From: Acidimicrobiales bacterium
GTDB taxonomy: Bacteria; Actinomycetota; Acidimicrobiia; Acidimicrobiales; Bog-793
Assembly: GCA_052143575.1 (NCBI GenBank)
Contig: JBKQSP010000125.1
Coordinates: 3,281 to 67,280, forward strand
DNA length: 64,000 bases
Reading direction: 5' to 3'
Below are positions 5,851-64,000 of this stretch, piece by piece. Numbering within the stretch: position 1 is the first letter of the stretch; every line of letters begins with the position of its first letter. The notes under the pieces were generated by a model, which ran no database searches, had not been told where the DNA came from, and was given only the letters and a program-made list of their open reading frames with translations. The position numbers were made by a program, and so were the translations under genes.

Positions 5851-6302
5851 TGCCGGTGGTGGCGTAGACCACCGTGGACACGACCGCCCCCGGGCGTCGC
5901 GCCGGCAGTCGCGAGGTCCGGGGGCGGCGGCGCGCTCGGGCATCACTCCGCCGGTCGACCGAGGCGCGGTCTGGCACGCGTCCGCGGCTACCGGGCATCC
6001 GTGAGGTGTCGGCCCGCCGGCAGGGCGCAGACTCTCGACACAAGGCCAGAACGTCGACGCCCAGTTCAAGTCGGCTCGGGCCGGCGGGGCCGGCGGAGGG
6101 GTCAGCGTACGTAAAGTGACTCCGAGGAGAGGCTCCGTCGCATGGATCGCCGATCTCGAACGCGAGGAGGGCGTCGCCGCCACCAGGGTCTATCCACGGC
6201 TGGCCAAAGATTGGCCGGCTAACCGGCCGGGAGAGGCGGCCTGCGGACCCTGACGAGAAGTCTCTGGCGCCAAGCTCTGTGCGCCGACCGACGTTTGAGC
6301 AG

Positions 6303-6566
6303 CTAAGCCTCTACGAGGATCACCATTGTCTCGGGCAAGACGCCGTCATGCTCCATCGCCTCGGCCGCCCCCTCAGCCTGCATGGCGGCCGTGAAAGTAT
6401 CCATGTCGGGAACGTCCATGAGCACTGCAACGTGGGTCGGGTTCTGCGGGTCGACGAACGTCCGGATGTTGCTGACGCCGAGCGGCCCGAAGAACTCTTC
6501 TCGCTTCGGTGATGCCAGCCAATGATCCTTGTCCTTCACATCGTGGTGACCGATCAAAGTAGGCAT
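6303..6566 (-). CDS. small conserved-looking hypothetical protein (87 aa)
   Basis: ATG is preceded by GGAGGAAGC. MPTLIGHHDVKDKDHWLASPKREEFFGPLGVSNIRTFVDPQNPTHVAVLMDVPDMDTFTAAMQ. A GGCCGG-ctaa-CCGGCC hairpin at 6213-6228 lies downstream. Confidence 0.6.
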   Translation of the reverse strand: MPTLIGHHDVKDKDHWLASPKREEFFGPLGVSNIRTFVDPQNPTHVAVLMDVPDMDTFTAAMQAEGAAEAMEHDGVLPETMVILVEA

Positions 6567-6716
6567 GCTTCCTCCGTGTGACGTGGTCCCGACGACGGTG
6601 CCGAGCCCGGCGCGCTGACGCTACACCGGCGTGCCTGGTGCGTGCGCCGAGAAGGCGCTGGCGCACTGCGCCTTCACACCGGCACTGCTAGTGATGCTGT
6701 GAGATCGACAACATCA

Positions 6717-57780: not shown

Positions 57781-59349
57781 GTGGGGGACGAGATGCCGGA
57801 TGCGGTGCCCAGGCAGGCTCGGGAGGCAGCCACGTTGCGGTTGCCGTCGTCGTGCCTCGTCGTGCTGATCGGGCCGTCTGCCTCGGGGAAATCGACATGG
57901 GCAGCCGCCAACTTCCGGCCCAGCCAGGTCGTCGCCTCGGACGCCCTGCGAGGACTCGTGGGCGAGAGTGCCCAGGACCAACGCGCCGGAACGGACGCCT
58001 TCGACGTCCTCGATCTCGTTGTCGAGCGCCGACTGCGACGAGGCTTGCTCACCGTCATCGACACCCTCGGGATCGACGGCGCCAGGCGGGCCCGCTACCT
58101 CGAGGCCGCAGCACGCCACGGCGTCGCCTGCCACGCCGTCGTGTTCGACACGCCGGCCGAGCTGTGCAGACGTCGCAATCGCGAGCGGGGCCGAGACGGT
58201 GCCGTCCCGCCCGGCGTGCTGGCGGCACAGCTGAGCGGCTTCGCCGCCGCCAGGCCGGCCCTTGCCCAGGAACCCTTCGACGGGGTGCACGAGCCCGCCG
58301 AGGTGGAGATCGTGCCGCCCGCACTCGTGCAGGCACCCGAGCTACGCACTCGACAGGAGGAGACGCCGATGGGGTTGCGCTTCGGCTTGCAGCTGTCCAG
58401 CTTCCACTGGCCCGGCGGTCCGGGCTCTCTGGCCGGACACCTTGCCGAGATCGCCACGGCGGCCGAGGATGCCGGCTTCGCCAACCTCTGGGTGATGGAC
58501 CACTTCCTCCAGATCCCCCAGGTCGGCCGGGAGTGGGACGAGATGCTCGAGAGTTACACGGCTCTCGGGTTCCTGGCGGCGGCGACCCGCCGTATCCGGC
58601 TCGGGACGCTCGTGACGGGGGTCACCTACCGCAACCTTGCCCACCTCGCCAAGGCCGTGGCGACCCTCGACGTCCTCTCGGGCGGGCGGGCGATCTGCGG
58701 GATCGGAGCCGCCTGGTACAAGCGGGAGCACGTCGCCTACGGATGGCCTTTCCCGCCGCCCGGCGACCGCTACCGGCTCCTCGAGGACGCCCTTCAGCTC
58801 CTACCCCTCATGTGGGGACCGGGCTCACCGCCCTTCGAGGGGAGCACGACGAGCGTGCCGGAGACGATCTGCTATCCGCGTCCGCTCCAGGAACACCTGC
58901 CGATCCTCGTCGGGGGTGGCGGCGAGCGCCGCACACTTCGCCTTGCCGCCCGCTACGCCGATGCCTGCAACCTCTTCGGCGACGCCGTCACCGTCCGCCA
59001 CAAGGTGGAGGTGCTGCGGGCACACTGCGAGGAGGTCGGGCGGCCGGTCGAGGACGTCGAGGTGACGCACCTCGGCCCCGCCCTCGCCGCCTCCGACCGC
59101 CGGGAGCTCGAGGCCAAGGTGGAGCACCTCCGCCCGCCGTCGCTGTCTCCGGAGGCCTTCTCCGCCCGCACGACGGCCGCCACCGTGGACGACCTCATCG
59201 GGCACTTCCGCGCCCTGGCGGAGGCGGGCGTCGGGACGGCCATCGTCAGCCTGCCGGACGTGGCGGATCCAGAAGCGCTCCCTCGCTTTGCCGAGGTGAT
59301 CGCCGCCTTCTCGGGTGTGACGCCGTCGCCGGGCCGCCTCGGGTCCTGA
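57781..59349 (+). CDS. fusion protein: N-terminal P-loop polynucleotide-kinase-like (AAA_33) domain plus C-terminal LLM-class (luciferase-like, probably F420-dependent) oxidoreductase
   Basis: LVVLIGPSASGKSTWAAANF...VVASDALRGLV...DAFDVLDLVVERRL..GLLTVIDT resembles the Pnkp kinase domain. From residue ~200, MGLRFGLQLSSF...FANLWVMDHF...LGTLVTGVTYRN...GIGAAWYKREH...PILVGGGGERRTLRLAA is LLM-like. Confidence 0.8.
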   Translation: MGDEMPDAVPRQAREAATLRLPSSCLVVLIGPSASGKSTWAAANFRPSQVVASDALRGLVGESAQDQRAGTDAFDVLDLVVERRLRRGLLTVIDTLGIDGARRARYLEAAARHGVACHAVVFDTPAELCRRRNRERGRDGAVPPGVLAAQLSGFAAARPALAQEPFDGVHEPAEVEIVPPALVQAPELRTRQEETPMGLRFGLQLSSFHWPGGPGSLAGHLAEIATAAEDAGFANLWVMDHFLQIPQVGREWDEMLESYTALGFLAAATRRIRLGTLVTGVTYRNLAHLAKAVATLDVLSGGRAICGIGAAWYKREHVAYGWPFPPPGDRYRLLEDALQLLPLMWGPGSPPFEGSTTSVPETICYPRPLQEHLPILVGGGGERRTLRLAARYADACNLFGDAVTVRHKVEVLRAHCEEVGRPVEDVEVTHLGPALAASDRRELEAKVEHLRPPSLSPEAFSARTTAATVDDLIGHFRALAEAGVGTAIVSLPDVADPEALPRFAEVIAAFSGVTPSPGRLGS

Positions 59350-59420: not shown

Positions 59421-59564
59421 ATGGCCGACAAATCCCCAAAGAAGACGACCACGAAGAAGGTTGGAAAGACGCTCAAGGAGAAGCGGGCAGCCAAGAAGCA
59501 GAAGCACGACCCGTCCCTCGGCGCCAGCCAGATGGACGCGCTGCGGACGAACAAAAGCCGCTGA
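59421..59564 (+). CDS. small lysine-rich protein (47 aa)
   Basis: AAGGAG at 59405-59410 lies 10 nt before ATG 59421. MADKSPKKTTTKKVGKTLKEKRAAKKQKHDPSLGASQMDALRTNKSR. Confidence 0.5.
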   Translation: MADKSPKKTTTKKVGKTLKEKRAAKKQKHDPSLGASQMDALRTNKSR

Positions 59565-59663: not shown

Positions 59664-61022
59664 GTGGAGGTGACGAGCCGGCAGCTGTCCGACGCCGCCG
59701 CCATCGCCGAGGGCTTCATCTGCTACCGCGCCTTCATGCTTGCGGCGCCTGCGGTCTCCTACGGCATCGCCCGCCACGGGCGCACGGTGCTGAGCGGTGC
59801 CCGCGGCTCGAGCGACCTCGCCACCGGCACGCCGGCGACGGCTCACACGGGTTACCGCGTCGCTTCCATCACAAAGACGTTCACGGCCACGCTCCTGATG
59901 CAACTCGTCGAGGCCCGCAAGGTTCGCCTCGACGAGCCCGTGACGTCCTATCTGAGCTGGCTGAATCCGGCCGTCGGCAACTCCGGGCTCACCGTCCGTC
60001 ACCTGCTCACCCATAGCGGGGGAGTCATCCGAGACGGATCCTGCGGCTGGCGCCCCGGCGAGTTCCCGACGCGTCAGGAGGTGCGCGAGCAGCTCCTCGA
60101 CCACGGGACGTTCGCCGAGCCGGCGGCCGGGTTTCGCTACTCGAACATGGCCTACTCGCTCCTCGGCGAGATCGTCGAGACGGTGGGTGGCCGCCAGTTC
60201 GCCACCGCCGTCGACCGCTCCATCGCGAAGCCGCTCGGCCTCGAGGCGTCCGGGACACGCCTGACGCCCCGCCTGCGGGCGACGCTTGCCACCGGGTACT
60301 GGAGGCAGCTGCCCGGGGAAGTCCCTCGCCCCCTCGCCCAGAGCGAGGCAGCGGCCTTCGAGGCGGCCGGCGGGCTCGTCTCGACGGTCGGCGACCTCCT
60401 GCGGTACCAGGAAGCGCATCTGCCCGGCGACGGTCGCCTTCTCAGCGAGCTCAGCAAGCGTGAGATGCAGCGGGTGCAATGGCAGCGCGCCGAGGAGCCG
60501 CACCACGGCCTCGGCTGGATGATCTACACGGTCGACGGCATCACCGTGCGCGGGCACAGCGGCGGTTACCCCGGCTTCACGACGCGCATCGGGTTCTCGC
60601 CCGAGCAGGGCGTCTGCGCCGCCGTGCTGACGAGCACGATCTCACCGCTGTCCGGTGTCGGTCTCGAGGTGATCTTCCACTCCATCGCTCGGGTGCAGGC
60701 CATCTGGGAGGAGGCCGCCGGCGCCGCGCAGGGCCTCACCCGGCGCTCGCTCCGGCGCTTCGTCGGGCACTACCGGGGCGATTGGGGAGACGTGCTCGTG
60801 GCCGGCGTGAACAAGTCCTTGTACCTCCTCGACCCTGAGGAGGACCGTCCGATGCGGCTTCCTTCCCGCCTGGCGCCGGTCGACGACGGCGGTCGTTTCC
60901 TCATCGTGGACAACGACGACTACGGCAACCGCGGCGAGGAAGTTGCCTTCGACGTCGCGGAGCCCGGTCCGGCGCGCCGTCTTTCGATGGGTGGGCAGGT
61001 GCTCGAGCGGGTGGTCATCTGA
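59664..61022 (+). CDS. serine hydrolase, beta-lactamase/PBP4-like family
   Basis: SxxK motif in YRVASITKTFTATLLMQLV. YSNMAYSLLGEIVE. HSGGYPGF. The GTG start is uncertain. Confidence 0.8.
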   Translation: MEVTSRQLSDAAAIAEGFICYRAFMLAAPAVSYGIARHGRTVLSGARGSSDLATGTPATAHTGYRVASITKTFTATLLMQLVEARKVRLDEPVTSYLSWLNPAVGNSGLTVRHLLTHSGGVIRDGSCGWRPGEFPTRQEVREQLLDHGTFAEPAAGFRYSNMAYSLLGEIVETVGGRQFATAVDRSIAKPLGLEASGTRLTPRLRATLATGYWRQLPGEVPRPLAQSEAAAFEAAGGLVSTVGDLLRYQEAHLPGDGRLLSELSKREMQRVQWQRAEEPHHGLGWMIYTVDGITVRGHSGGYPGFTTRIGFSPEQGVCAAVLTSTISPLSGVGLEVIFHSIARVQAIWEEAAGAAQGLTRRSLRRFVGHYRGDWGDVLVAGVNKSLYLLDPEEDRPMRLPSRLAPVDDGGRFLIVDNDDYGNRGEEVAFDVAEPGPARRLSMGGQVLERVVI

Positions 61023-61026
61023 GGCC

Positions 61027-61590
61027 ATGCCGGCCTACGCAGCGCTCCTGCGCGGGATCAACCTCGCCGGCCACAACAAGGTGCCGATGGGCGAGCTGCG
61101 CACGCTGTGCGGTGAGCTCGGTCTCGGCGACGTCACCACGTACATCCAAAGCGGCAATGTCGTGTTCTCGAGCGTCCGCACCGACTCGAGCGCCCTCGCC
61201 GGCGAGCTGGAGGGCGCCATCGCCGGCGCCTTCGGCTTCGACGTGCCCGTCGTGCTGCGGTCCGCCGTCGAGCTGGAAGGCATCGCCGCCTCCAACCCGT
61301 ACGTGCAGGGGGGGAGGGATCCCTCCGAGCTCTCGGTCGGGTTTCTTGCGGAACTGCCCGCACCCGAGCGTGTGAGCGCATTGCGTGCCGACCCGCTGGC
61401 GAGCCGGCCTCCCGGACGTGACGAGTTCGCGCTCCTCGGCCGGGAGGTCTTCCTTCACCATCCCAACGGCTACGGGCGCTCGAAGCTGACCAACAGCTAC
61501 TTCGACCGGCGCCTCGGCACCATGATGACGGTGCGCAACTGGCGGACCGTCGTGACGCTGGGTGAGATGACGCAGCGCCTGGGTAGGTAG
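61027..61590 (+). CDS. DUF1697 family protein
   Basis: MPAYAALLRGINLAGHNKVPMGELRTLCGELGLGDVTTYIQSGNVVF. Confidence 0.85.
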   Translation: MPAYAALLRGINLAGHNKVPMGELRTLCGELGLGDVTTYIQSGNVVFSSVRTDSSALAGELEGAIAGAFGFDVPVVLRSAVELEGIAASNPYVQGGRDPSELSVGFLAELPAPERVSALRADPLASRPPGRDEFALLGREVFLHHPNGYGRSKLTNSYFDRRLGTMMTVRNWRTVVTLGEMTQRLGR

Positions 61591-61672
61591 GCCGTGAGCC
61601 GTCTCGGAACCGGAACTACCCTGACGCGTTGGCAAGCTGGCCATGCGGACCTGACACAGGGGAGCAAAGGCG

Positions 61673-62395
61673 ATGAGTCTGACGCCAGAGGTGTACGGGC
61701 AGGACATCTACACCGAGGCCGCCGGTGATCCCGACACGCTCGGCAATCTCGGGCCACTGCGGCCGATGGCGGGAGTCTGGGAGGGCACCTTCGGCCACGA
61801 CGACCATCCCGTCGCCGGCGGCAGCGGCCTCGATGCCTACGTCGAGCACTACGAGCTGCAACCGATCGACCGCCAGACGAACGGCCCGCAGCTGTTCTTC
61901 GGCCTCCGTTACCACACACACATCGTGCGACCCGGCGAGACGGAGACGTTCCACGACCAGGTCGGCTACTGGCTCTGGGAGCCGGCAGCACACGCCGTCG
62001 TCTTCACGCTCGCCATCCCCCGCGGCCAGGTGCTGCTGGCGGGCGGGACGGCCGAGCCGGATGCCACCGAGTTCGAAGTGAGGGCTGCACTCGGCTCGGA
62101 CACCTACGGGATCGCGTCGAACCCCTTCCTCGACCGAGCCTTCCGCACACTCAGCTTCCGCATGACCGTGACAGTTCACCGCGACGGCTCCTGGTCCTAC
62201 GACGAGGAGGCCGTCTTGCAGACACCGGATCGGGACGAGCCCTACCTGCATACGGACCGCAACGTTCTGCGGAGGGTGTCGCCGCCGTCTCCGAACCCGC
62301 TGGCTGCCGAAGCCGCCGAAGCCGCCGATGCAGCCGTCCCCGATGCCGGCCTCGGCATCGGGGATCTCCGACAGGAAGAGAGGAACCTTCCATGA
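61673..62395 (+). CDS. putative encapsulin cargo: nitrobindin/DUF1794-like beta-barrel protein with a C-terminal targeting-peptide-like tail
   Basis: GGGGAG RBS. Core LGPLRPMAGVWEGTFG...YVEHYELQP...FHDQVGYWLWEP...PYLHTDRNVLRRV. Then the Pro/Ala/Glu linker SPPSPNPLAAEAAEAADAAVPDA and GLGIGDLRQEERNLP. Its stop overlaps the encapsulin ATG (ATGA at 62392-62395). Confidence 0.8.
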   Translation: MSLTPEVYGQDIYTEAAGDPDTLGNLGPLRPMAGVWEGTFGHDDHPVAGGSGLDAYVEHYELQPIDRQTNGPQLFFGLRYHTHIVRPGETETFHDQVGYWLWEPAAHAVVFTLAIPRGQVLLAGGTAEPDATEFEVRAALGSDTYGIASNPFLDRAFRTLSFRMTVTVHRDGSWSYDEEAVLQTPDRDEPYLHTDRNVLRRVSPPSPNPLAAEAAEAADAAVPDAGLGIGDLRQEERNLP

Positions 62396-63198
62396 ACCAC
62401 CTGATGCGAGATCTCGCCCCCGTCACCGAGGCAGCCTGGGCGCAGATCGATGCCGAGGCAGAACGCTCTCTGAAGCACTTCCTGGCCGCCCGCCGCCTCG
62501 TGGACTTCGTCGGGCCGCGAGGCTACGAGCACTCCGCCGTCGACCTCGGCCGCACGGAGCAGCTGGAGAGCACGTCGCTCGGCACCGTGCAGGTTGCCCG
62601 CCGCCTTGTCGTGCCGCTGCTCGAGCTGCGCGCCGGGTTCTCACTCCCGCGCGCCGAGCTGGCGGCAGCCGACCGGGGGGCGACCGATCTCGAGCTGAGC
62701 GCCGTCATCGAGGCGAGCCGCGCAGCCGCCCTCGCCGAGGACGGGATCATCTTCCATGGCTACGAATCGGGCGCCATCGCCGGTATCGGGCCGTCGTCGC
62801 CCTACGACCCGGTCGGCATCACCGACGACTACAGCGCCTATCCCGAGCACGTCGCCAAGGCCGTGGCGATCCTGCGGGCGGCCGACGTGGCCGGCCCGTA
62901 TGCCGTCGCCCTCGGCTCCCGCTGCTTCACGGGCGTCACCGAAACCACCGAGCACGGTGGCTATCCGGTCTTCGAACACTTGCGTCAGATCCTCGGCGGT
63001 CCTGTCGTCTGGGCGCCCGCCGTCGACGGCGCCATCGTGCTCAGCCAGCGCGGAGGCGACTACGAGATGACCGTCGGGGAGGACTACTCCGTCGGGTATT
63101 CGGCGTTGGACGTCGACACGGTCGAGCTCTACATCGAGGAGAGCCTCGCATTTCGGATCAACGCACCCGAGGCGGCTGTTTGCCTGACCCACGGCTGA
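62392..63198 (+). CDS. family 1 encapsulin nanocompartment shell protein (linocin M18/Cfp29 type, 268 aa)
   Basis: MNHLMRDLAPVTEAAWAQIDAEAERSLKHFLAARRLVDFVGPRG...GIIFHGY...GPYAVALGSRCFTGVTETTEHGGYPVFEHLRQILGGPVVWAPAVDGAIVLSQRGGDYEMTVGEDYSVGY...VELYIEESLAFR. It is colinear with the remembered M. tuberculosis Cfp29 sequence (MNNLYRDLAPVTEAAWAEIE...). Confidence 0.92.
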   Translation: MNHLMRDLAPVTEAAWAQIDAEAERSLKHFLAARRLVDFVGPRGYEHSAVDLGRTEQLESTSLGTVQVARRLVVPLLELRAGFSLPRAELAAADRGATDLELSAVIEASRAAALAEDGIIFHGYESGAIAGIGPSSPYDPVGITDDYSAYPEHVAKAVAILRAADVAGPYAVALGSRCFTGVTETTEHGGYPVFEHLRQILGGPVVWAPAVDGAIVLSQRGGDYEMTVGEDYSVGYSALDVDTVELYIEESLAFRINAPEAAVCLTHG

Positions 63199-63219: not shown

Positions 63220-64000
63220 TCAGGGTCGCATCGTCAGCGGCCCGACGGCACTGGCGATGCCGGCCGTGCGCCGTGCCTGCCGCAGCATGTTGGCGTCGAG
63301 TCCGTTCGTGAGGTAGCAGAACGAGACGTCGGTGTCGGGATCGGCGAACGCGATCTGTCCGCCGGCGCCGCCATGGCCGAACGTGCGAGGCGACACGGTG
63401 TGCCCGAAGCCCCGCATGGCGGCGCCCTGGCCCTCTCCGGCGATCACCGTCCCGAGCGCCCGGTTGGACGACACGCGGTACACCGGGTCGGGCAGAACGC
63501 CGTGGACCTCGCGGGTGCCGGCGGCCAGCACCGCCGGGTCCCACATGCCTGCCGGGTTGTGCAGGAGGGCCTGGTAGTAGAGGGCGAGGTCGGCGGCCGT
63601 CGAGATGCCACCACCGCCGGGTACCCCCATCGCCCGCAGCTCGGGACGGTTGAAGGCGACGAGGGCAGCCTCGGTCACCTCTCCCTGGAGCGCCTCGAGG
63701 GTGATGCCGGGAATGCCGAGCACCGCCTCCAGCTCGGCGTTGCTGGGGGGCTCTCCCCGCACCTCGAGGTCGTTGATGTCATCCTGCTCCCCGGGAGGGA
63801 CGCCGAGGCGGAGCCGCCGCAGGCCGAGCGGATCGAGAACCCGCTCATACACGAAGCGGCGGAAGTCCATGCCGCCGAGGCGCTCGATGAGCTCGGCCAT
63901 CACCCAGTGGGCGGACGTGGGGTGGTATTCGAAACGCGTCCCCGGCTCCCAGTTGAGCCGCCAGCTGGCAAAGCGTGCCAGCCGCTGCTGGCGCGTGACG
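63220..64000 (-). CDS. serine hydrolase (beta-lactamase family), C-terminal part; 5-prime end beyond the window
   Basis: The frame stays open to base 64000 (…WEPGTRFEYHPTSAHWVMAELIERL...). C-terminus FGHGGAGGQIAFADPDTDVSFCYLTNG is typical of the family. Confidence 0.8.
   Translation of the reverse strand, partial: VTRQQRLARFASWRLNWEPGTRFEYHPTSAHWVMAELIERLGGMDFRRFVYERVLDPLGLRRLRLGVPPGEQDDINDLEVRGEPPSNAELEAVLGIPGITLEALQGEVTEAALVAFNRPELRAMGVPGGGGISTAADLALYYQALLHNPAGMWDPAVLAAGTREVHGVLPDPVYRVSSNRALGTVIAGEGQGAAMRGFGHTVSPRTFGHGGAGGQIAFADPDTDVSFCYLTNGLDANMLRQARRTAGIASAVGPLTMRP

Follow-up and report, generated by a model that had tools for sequence, protein, structure and literature searches.

A putative nitrobindin-fold cargo in a two-gene Family 1 encapsulin operon of Acidimicrobiia

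What does an encapsulin shell carry when the gene that precedes it encodes none of the catalogued cargo proteins? This question is raised by a two-gene locus in a 64-kb stretch of Acidimicrobiales DNA, the whole of which is called the window here. An earlier note on this DNA had described a linocin M18/Cfp29-type shell gene, joined by an ATGA start-stop overlap to an upstream gene for a nitrobindin/DUF1794-like β-barrel that ends in a flexible linker and a loading peptide, and had held this pairing to be uncharacterised. The catalogued cargos of Family 1 encapsulins are DyP, members of the ferritin-like superfamily (Flp, IMEF, hemerythrin, and bacterioferritin), and the anammox NIR-HAO (PMC8346489). 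That catalogue, from 2021, comprises more than 6,000 encapsulin systems, 90 of which were left unassigned (PMC8346489). To the catalogued cargos, only cysteine desulfurases, ferric reductases, and terpene synthases are added by a 2025 review of those that have been characterised, and no such barrel fold is included there (PMC12746231). The Pfam family of the upstream protein, PF08768, occurs once only in the portion of the 2021 catalogue's supplements that was covered, ten genes from a DyP operon; this partial coverage leaves its absence unproven. In the searchable literature, no paper was found that links encapsulins with nitrobindin, DUF1794, THAP4, peroxynitrite isomerase, UPF0678, lipocalin, or calycin, in agreement with the earlier note on the novelty of the pairing.

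We propose that the locus is a translationally coupled Family 1 encapsulin operon in which a nitrobindin-fold protein takes the place of DyP or a ferritin-like protein as the dedicated cargo, and we assign this reading a probability of about 0.78. That the barrel protein would be the cargo of the adjacent shell is very probable. The evidence supports a nitrobindin-fold barrel as a new cargo class for a known system whose shell and loading are orthodox.

Shell, gene overlap, and targeting peptide

The downstream gene encodes an orthodox Family 1 shell of the HK97 fold. The protein matches PF04454 over the entire profile (positions 1–253 of 253, E=3e-80), as the earlier note had expected, and the NCBIfam equivalog NF041155 (encap_f1, "family 1 encapsulin nanocompartment shell protein") with 281 bits against a cutoff of 100. 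End-to-end matches to solved Family 1 shells have E-values of 1e-62 to 1e-79 (M. tuberculosis Cfp29, K. pneumoniae, linocin M18 entries, and the unpublished 9ry4 set), and a 100% identical protein from an Acidimicrobiales metagenome-assembled genome (MAG) carries the NCBI annotation of a family 1 encapsulin shell. Given its length of 268 amino acids and its closest solved relatives, the shell probably assembles as a 60-subunit T=1 particle. Shells that are linked to a barrel gene form a group of their own, with 60–82% mutual identity. The solved shell that comes nearest to them, 9ry4 (six entries, for which we found no paper), was considered as an already solved version of this system and was ruled out; it represents a different system because it is no more than 54% identical to any linked shell.

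The two genes share the ATGA at 62392–62395, with the shell ATG at 62392–62394 and the cargo TGA at 62393–62395. The same 4-nt overlap occurs in 28 other species-level genomes, and given this recurrence the pairing of cargo and shell is not due to chance. In the 28 linked loci, a GAAAGCAGGA-like sequence or GAGAGGA lies 6–10 nt 5' of the overlapping ATGA or GTGA. The sequence motifs on which the earlier note relied, namely L.PL..M.GVWEG.G, HDQVGYW, H193, and the cargo C-terminus AAVPDAGLGIGDLRQEERNLP, are all present. The G+C content of the operon region is 67–72%, as in the remaining window. The 82-nt gap that separates the cargo gene from the preceding DUF1697 gene has no sigma-70-like promoter or Rfam element, and promoter, terminator, and Rfam scans around the operon yielded nothing useful.

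At the C-terminus of the cargo protein, AGLGIGDLR is by its sequence a Family 1 targeting peptide. In a study of the K. pneumoniae DyP-encapsulin, the DyP consensus was GSLxIGSLK and the peptide of the H. ochraceum ferritin-like protein Flp was GSLGIGSLR (PMC10960027). Three hydrophobic residues (L-x-I-G-x-L) and a terminal basic residue were shown to dock in a luminal pocket of the Family 1 shell, and the shell residues relevant to binding in K. pneumoniae are R34, D38, D229, and I230 (PMC10960027). The cargo sequence L227-G-I229-G-D-L232-R233 matches this experimentally defined register exactly, as the loading peptide put forward in the earlier note should. On the side of the shell, R34 and D38 are found at identical numbering and are kept in 100% and 93%, respectively, of 29 linked shells; D229 probably corresponds to D231 (86%), as judged from a two-residue offset rather than from a residue-by-residue alignment.

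The peptide is strongly conserved. Among shell-linked orthologs, its core consists of L (32/32), G (29/32), I, V, or L (32/32), G (32/32), a variable residue, L (32/32), and R (32/32), and almost every one of the 120 protein clusters closest to the cargo has the peptide. The variable position is D or N in 25 of 32 linked copies and S in 20 of 22 copies that have no adjacent shell gene, which gives the latter the canonical GSLGIGSLR. The linker before the peptide varies from 7 to 28 residues among orthologs and is 29% Ala and 12% Gly, and the confidence of the structural model (predicted local distance difference test, pLDDT) drops from 74 to 51 past residue 210. Seven residues 3' of the peptide (consensus xESRxxP) are conserved in linked copies and missing from homologs without an adjacent shell. 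The conservation of this tail is explained by its codons, which carry the ribosome-binding site of the shell gene. Since the unlinked homologs lack xESRxxP yet have the peptide, the peptide is conserved for its own sake and not through the overlap.

Fold and conserved histidines of the barrel

Pfam, profile-profile comparison, and the predicted fold support the assignment of the cargo body to the nitrobindin/THAP4-type barrels. The protein matches PF08768 (THAP4_heme-bd) over the whole profile (positions 1–151, residues 25–201) with E=6e-20 and 72.3 bits against a gathering cutoff of 25. Alignment of the cargo profile with a plant nitrobindin alignment by hhalign gave a probability of 95.6% and E=1.3e-8 over the N-terminal two-thirds. 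An AlphaFold2 model built from 49 homologs has a mean pLDDT of 79 and a predicted template modeling (TM) score, pTM, of 0.74, and DSSP places strands between residues 34 and 203, followed by a low-confidence tail. The top match of the model in the PDB by Foldseek is 3ia8, the nitrobindin domain of human THAP4 (E=2e-7, target-normalised TM 0.81). Engineered Arabidopsis nitrobindins follow (3wje, 3wjf, and 3wjb; E=1e-6 to 1e-5), as does 2fr2 (M. tuberculosis Rv2717c, target-normalised TM 0.79), and the seven best matches are all nitrobindins or mycobacterial relatives. Rv0813 (2fwv) is matched at E=1.5e-5, and the spirocyclase OssO (7sfp) and the Diels-Alderase AbmU are matched more weakly. Some family members are named "FABP family protein" by NCBI. 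The nitrobindin/DUF1794-like fold suggested by the earlier note is thus borne out by the predictions, and a match to some other, non-barrel family, which would have spoken against it, did not occur.

Two histidines of the barrel are candidates for a heme pocket. F93-H94 of the cargo ("tfHdqvGYw") aligns with M75-H76 of Arabidopsis nitrobindin ("PMHAESGYF", 3emm) by profile-to-PDB alignment, and hhalign concurs. H193 is invariant across 49 close homologs and is located 8 residues before the end of the domain, the same as H158 of nitrobindin, which we take to be the proximal heme ligand of the Arabidopsis protein. H76 and H158 are both substituted in the cavity-engineered nitrobindin variants among the fold matches. 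H94 and H193 are each at least 90% conserved among relatives down to 34% identity, as are 18 positions overall. Distant relatives (34–45% identity, ~190 amino acids) keep the HxDxNxL last strand and lack the peptide. In nitrobindins, heme is anchored by a single proximal histidine with no distal histidine, and these proteins scavenge nitric oxide (NO), isomerise peroxynitrite, and reduce nitrite (PMC10094804). Of the earlier note's description of a nitrobindin-like barrel with H193 close to the domain end, the fold, the position, and the presence of the histidine stand, whereas a role in heme, NO, or peroxynitrite chemistry is one that we infer. With regard to that role, the odds are evenly balanced that the cargo, as its conserved H94 and H193 would suggest, binds heme and acts on reactive species of nitrogen or oxygen.

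The block of the cargo family that is most conserved, ELQPIDRQTNGPQLFYGLRYHTH, occupies residues 61–83. Its Q73, G77, and Y80 are nearly invariant among relatives down to 34% identity.

Distribution of peptide and shell, and rival readings

The cargo family is large, with at least 7,981 database proteins at E≤1e-5 and with 1,033 clusters at a level of 50% identity. At least 566 species-level genomes contain relatives, and nearly all of these are MAGs of Acidimicrobiia from soil, peat, and permafrost. We classified the best 80 species-level loci by the presence of the peptide and of a shell. Peptide and a directly downstream Family 1 shell occur together in 31 loci, 28 of which have the same 4-nt overlap; the peptide occurs with no shell within ~6 kb in 22; and neither occurs in 27, in which the protein ends just past ...PNPLA. 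A shell next to a barrel lacking the peptide was found in none of the 80. The association is significant by Fisher's exact test (p=6e-8), shared ancestry not being corrected for. Thus, of the expectation that the barrel and its tail would be found beside an encapsulin, the tail is conserved in orthologs and present in 31 of 31 shell-adjacent copies, whereas the 22 tail-bearing copies without a nearby shell depart from it. These 22 homologs are largely one clade (loci L010, L012, L015, L017, L018, L021, L024–L026, L028–L030, L032, L033, L035, L038, L043, L044, L046, L057, L064, and L073, with the cargo homolog at ~6001–6700 in most). Their sequences suggest that such barrels may be packaged in trans, by a shell whose gene lies elsewhere.

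The strongest comparative evidence for the link between peptide and shell is the comparison of loci in synteny. The main synteny group has the order acyl-CoA synthetase-like, SDR, acyl-CoA dehydrogenase-like, MsrB, SSB, barrel, [shell], CoA-transferase, DUF3501, rubrerythrin, and Fur-family regulator. Peptide and shell are both present in seven of these loci (L003, L004, L006, L008, L009, L014, and L036) and both missing from another seven (L016, L023, L027, L045, L055, L065, and L072). The distance from the end of the barrel gene to the CoA-transferase gene is 177–248 nt in the shell-less form as compared with 853–925 nt in the linked form, and relaxed tblastn of the shell-less syntenic loci found no degraded shell remnants, only noise. 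Peptide and shell therefore co-occur and are lost together across genomes. Loci of the three classes do not separate in a neighbour-joining tree built on the barrel domain but are interspersed (for example, L023 and L027 lie inside a clade of linked systems), which indicates that peptide and shell have been lost or gained jointly several times. The divergence of cargo and that of shell from the proteins of the window are correlated (r=0.61, p=0.001).

The neighbourhood of the main synteny group is identical with or without the shell. Its stress-related members are MsrB (SelR), rubrerythrin, DUF3501, the Fur-family regulator, and a CCG/4Fe-4S protein, and it also includes SSB and CoA-transferase III. 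One MAG, PLZW01 (palsa_738), has a shell-linked, peptide-bearing barrel and a peptide-less paralog elsewhere (L048 and L055), so encapsulated and free versions of the barrel can coexist in one genome.

It is very hard to credit that adjacency and tail are coincidental, with LGIGDLR being a disordered tail shaped by the overlapping shell start and the barrel not being packaged at all. It is true that the ribosome-binding site of the shell constrains the last seven cargo codons, but the LGIGxLR core lies 5' of these codons, is equally conserved in the 22 homologs that have no overlapping shell gene, and matches the experimentally mapped register residue for residue. The peptide is also gone from every shell-less form of the same syntenic locus, and among 933 genes in 81 loci the motif is confined to the barrel family. 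The barrel might otherwise be packaged as a secondary cargo, the main cargo being a DyP, ferritin-like protein, or hemerythrin that is encoded elsewhere with a peptide of its own. Family 1 cargos outside the operon have been reported, such as M. tuberculosis BfrB and FolB (PMC8072242; PMC8346489), and some of the solved shells most closely related to this one are associated with DyP. The 22 of 80 homologs that have the peptide away from a shell suggest that loading in trans takes place in this family, and the inspected portion of the source genome amounts to ~73 kb. Against this, in 28 species the stop codon of the barrel gene overlaps the start codon of the shell gene, whose ribosome-binding site is embedded in the barrel gene, cargo and shell co-diverge, and the linked copies have their own peptide variant (D or N) that differs from the canonical S. 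Moreover, the genes within 6 kb of each of the 31 linked shells include no further one that encodes a targeting peptide, and no open reading frame of the window besides the cargo has a peptide-like C-terminus. The earlier note had reckoned with a classic cargo just outside the window; in the 9 kb past the window end, read from contigs that are identical to the window over both genes, no gene with a targeting peptide was found. A secondary role for the barrel is thus improbable.

A more serious alternative, although still an unlikely one, accepts the barrel as genuine cargo and takes its calycin-like cavity for the binding site of a hydrophobic ligand, as proposed for the FABP-like Rv0813c, or for the site of a different catalysis, as in the barrel cyclases, such that the compartment would sequester a lipid or small molecule. 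The Foldseek matches to Rv0813, OssO, and AbmU and the FABP name given to some members by NCBI fit with this alternative, as do two points that also weigh against a nitrobindin-like cargo. A single-sequence phmmer search of PDB sequences with the cargo finds no nitrobindin, nor does a profile of the close family, and a broader profile reaches Arabidopsis nitrobindin at merely E=0.003, so that the sequence similarity to biochemically characterised nitrobindins is marginal. Residues 61–83 hold an insertion of ~8 residues, DRQTNGPQ, that is strongly conserved and absent from canonical nitrobindins, and because of it the chemistry or ligand of the cargo may differ from that of textbook nitrobindins. 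Further points concern the reading that we favour. H193 is one column off the proximal histidine of nitrobindin (LQPHLKA), in the same last strand, in a forced global hhalign alignment whose confidence in this stretch is zero; owing to this offset, we treat H193 as a probable rather than proven heme ligand. The neighbours in the window (DUF1697, β-lactamase-fold proteins, and an F420-dependent oxidoreductase) offer no functional clue. With respect to the pairing itself, the association statistic ignores shared ancestry, and 22 of the 80 homologs have the peptide with no shell nearby. Against the alternative of a different ligand or reaction, the best structural matches of the cargo are heme-binding nitrobindins, H94 aligns with H76 and H193 lies near H158, and both histidines are kept down to 34% identity, where little else persists. 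In addition, many genes of the main synteny group relate to oxidative stress, and there is no biosynthetic gene cluster around the gene.

For the dedicated nitrobindin-fold cargo that we favour, the following course of events may be envisaged. Translational coupling through the ATGA overlap would lead to co-production of cargo and shell, and during self-assembly of the shell the peptide would tether the barrel protein to the inner surface. The barrel would most likely bind heme b, with H193 as the proximal ligand and H94 lining the pocket, as in nitrobindins, and would most likely act on small reactive nitrogen or oxygen species through NO scavenging, peroxynitrite isomerisation, or nitrite reduction. 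The resulting particle would be a stress-protection nanocompartment analogous to the DyP and hemerythrin encapsulins. Put in its fullest form, which we advance tentatively and at somewhat less than even odds, this proposal describes a heme nanocompartment of soil Acidimicrobiia in which up to 60 barrels within a T=1 shell would handle peroxynitrite, NO, or nitrite. The system would be modular, with tail and shell gained or lost together at a fixed locus and with one clade loaded in trans through GSLGIGSLR, possibly sharing a shell with another cargo.

Genomic surroundings and known systems

The features of the operon and of the genes around it are collected in Table 1. The β-lactamase-fold gene that follows the shell runs past the window end, which alone makes it look truncated. 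The genes found in the 9 kb past the window end encode this convergent β-lactamase-fold protein, FGE-sulfatase, AtuA, PBP, AhpC, Usp, ADH, and PNPOx. The AhpC/TSA peroxiredoxin and universal stress protein genes lie ~6–8 kb past the window end (L081, 17076–18503).

The DUF1697 protein ends in ...VVTLGEMTQRLGR, which loosely resembles a targeting peptide and is probably the C-terminal helix of its family. This protein was considered as a second cargo by way of its C-terminal "VTLGEM" and was ruled out: it has no L-x-I-G-x-L-R register, the same ending is found in the DUF1697 protein of L064, a locus that has no shell and is unrelated, and just 3 of the 32 linked loci have the gene ahead of the cargo. 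Conservation of the gene at this site, immediately before the cargo, is limited to the closest loci (L001 and L005).

Table 1. Coordinates of the cargo–shell operon and its surroundings (positions of the window)
Feature	Position	Strand	Remarks
Cargo gene	61673–62395	+	240 aa, PF08768 barrel with C-terminal targeting peptide; open reading frame
Shell gene	62392–63198	+	268 aa, Family 1 encapsulin; open reading frame
Shine-Dalgarno-like AGGGGAG	61658–61664	+	8 nt 5' of cargo ATG; direct sequence reading
Barrel domain, residues 25–201	61745–62275	+	Pfam envelope; predicted as one short helix, then ~12 strands
Most conserved cargo-family block, residues 61–83	61853–61921
H94 codon	61952–61954	+	equivalent to heme-pocket His76 of Arabidopsis nitrobindin; profile-to-PDB alignment, hhalign
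H193 codon	62249–62251	+	candidate proximal heme ligand, last barrel strand; conservation
Ala/Gly/Pro-rich flexible linker, ~residues 205–225	62285–62347	+	variable length, low model confidence
Targeting peptide core G226-L-G-I-G-D-L-R233 (GLGIGDLR)	62348–62371	+	ortholog conservation, published consensus
Shell ribosome-binding site GAGAGGA	62378–62384	+	inside cargo codons E236-R237-N238
AAA_33 kinase domain fused to F420-dependent luciferase-like oxidoreductase	57781–59349	+	kinase domain N-terminal, bacterial polynucleotide kinase-phosphatase-like; oxidoreductase TIGR03560, above cutoff
Lysine-rich small open reading frame (MADKSPKKTTTKKVGKTLKEKRAAKKQKHDPSLGASQMDALRTNKSR)	~59421–59564	+	47 aa; called as gene on independent contigs from other samples (L081, L082)
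β-lactamase-fold gene upstream of operon	59664–61022		452 aa
DUF1697 gene	60943–61590	+	directly upstream of cargo, 82-nt gap; alternative start ~61027 (187 aa) in L081–L084 gene calls
Convergent β-lactamase-fold gene downstream of shell	63220–64000, continuing past window	-	complete, 393 aa, at L081 10829–12010

The function of an encapsulin is defined by its cargo, and with a nitrobindin-fold barrel the known cargos would be joined by a class that is structurally unrelated to them. If the proposal is correct, this would be the first all-β encapsulin cargo and the first cargo from the nitrobindin family. The encapsulin paradigm would be extended rather than changed by it, as the loading mechanism is orthodox. 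The system is abundant, with more than 100 protein clusters and at least 31 species-level genomes, mostly of soil and peat Acidimicrobiia. The physiological role of bacterial nitrobindins is still debated, and these proteins would gain a concrete and testable cellular context. The pairs of loci with and without peptide and shell at a single syntenic position, along with the unlinked clade that bears the tail, provide material for studying the evolution of cargo recruitment. Finally, as a natural cargo that is small, possibly monomeric, and canonically tagged, the barrel would be of use in engineering.

The cargo resembles the nitrobindins (Arabidopsis At1g79260, M. tuberculosis Rv2717c, and the C-terminal domain of human THAP4) in its PF08768 membership and in its predicted barrel, which has a target-normalised TM of 0.79–0.81 to them. 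It also has the N-terminal L..L.G.W.G.G motif, the equivalent of the H76 histidine, and an invariant histidine in the last strand. However, its sequence identity to nitrobindins is ~15–20%, and it has in addition the ~8-residue insertion within residues 61–83, a conserved N-terminal extension, and a stretch of ~35 residues comprising linker and targeting peptide. Known nitrobindins are free cytosolic or nuclear proteins, and none has been reported in a protein shell.

The DyP Family 1 encapsulins (M. tuberculosis/M. smegmatis Cfp29-DyP, B. linens, and K. pneumoniae) have the same organization, with the cargo gene directly upstream of a shell gene of ~265 amino acids. Their shells belong to the same family (full-length matches, E=1e-62 to 1e-65), R34 and D38 are kept, and the peptide register is shared (GSLxIGSLK as compared with GLGIGDLR), although DyP peptides have S where the present one has D or N. 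DyP has a fold of two ferredoxin-like domains and forms hexamers, in contrast to the all-β barrel of ~200 residues here. Should the proposed role hold, both systems would have a heme cargo tied to oxidative or nitrosative stress.

The actinobacterial hemerythrin encapsulins differ from the present system in that their cargo is a four-helix bundle with a di-iron site rather than a β-barrel with a putative single heme. Similarly to the system proposed here, they pair a Family 1 shell with a small cargo that is not a peroxidase and whose metal centre binds small gaseous or reactive molecules. Encapsulated hemerythrin systems have been reported to protect against oxidative and nitrosative stress (PMC8346489). 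By analogy, hemerythrin encapsulins would be the closest functional counterpart to the role proposed for the barrel.

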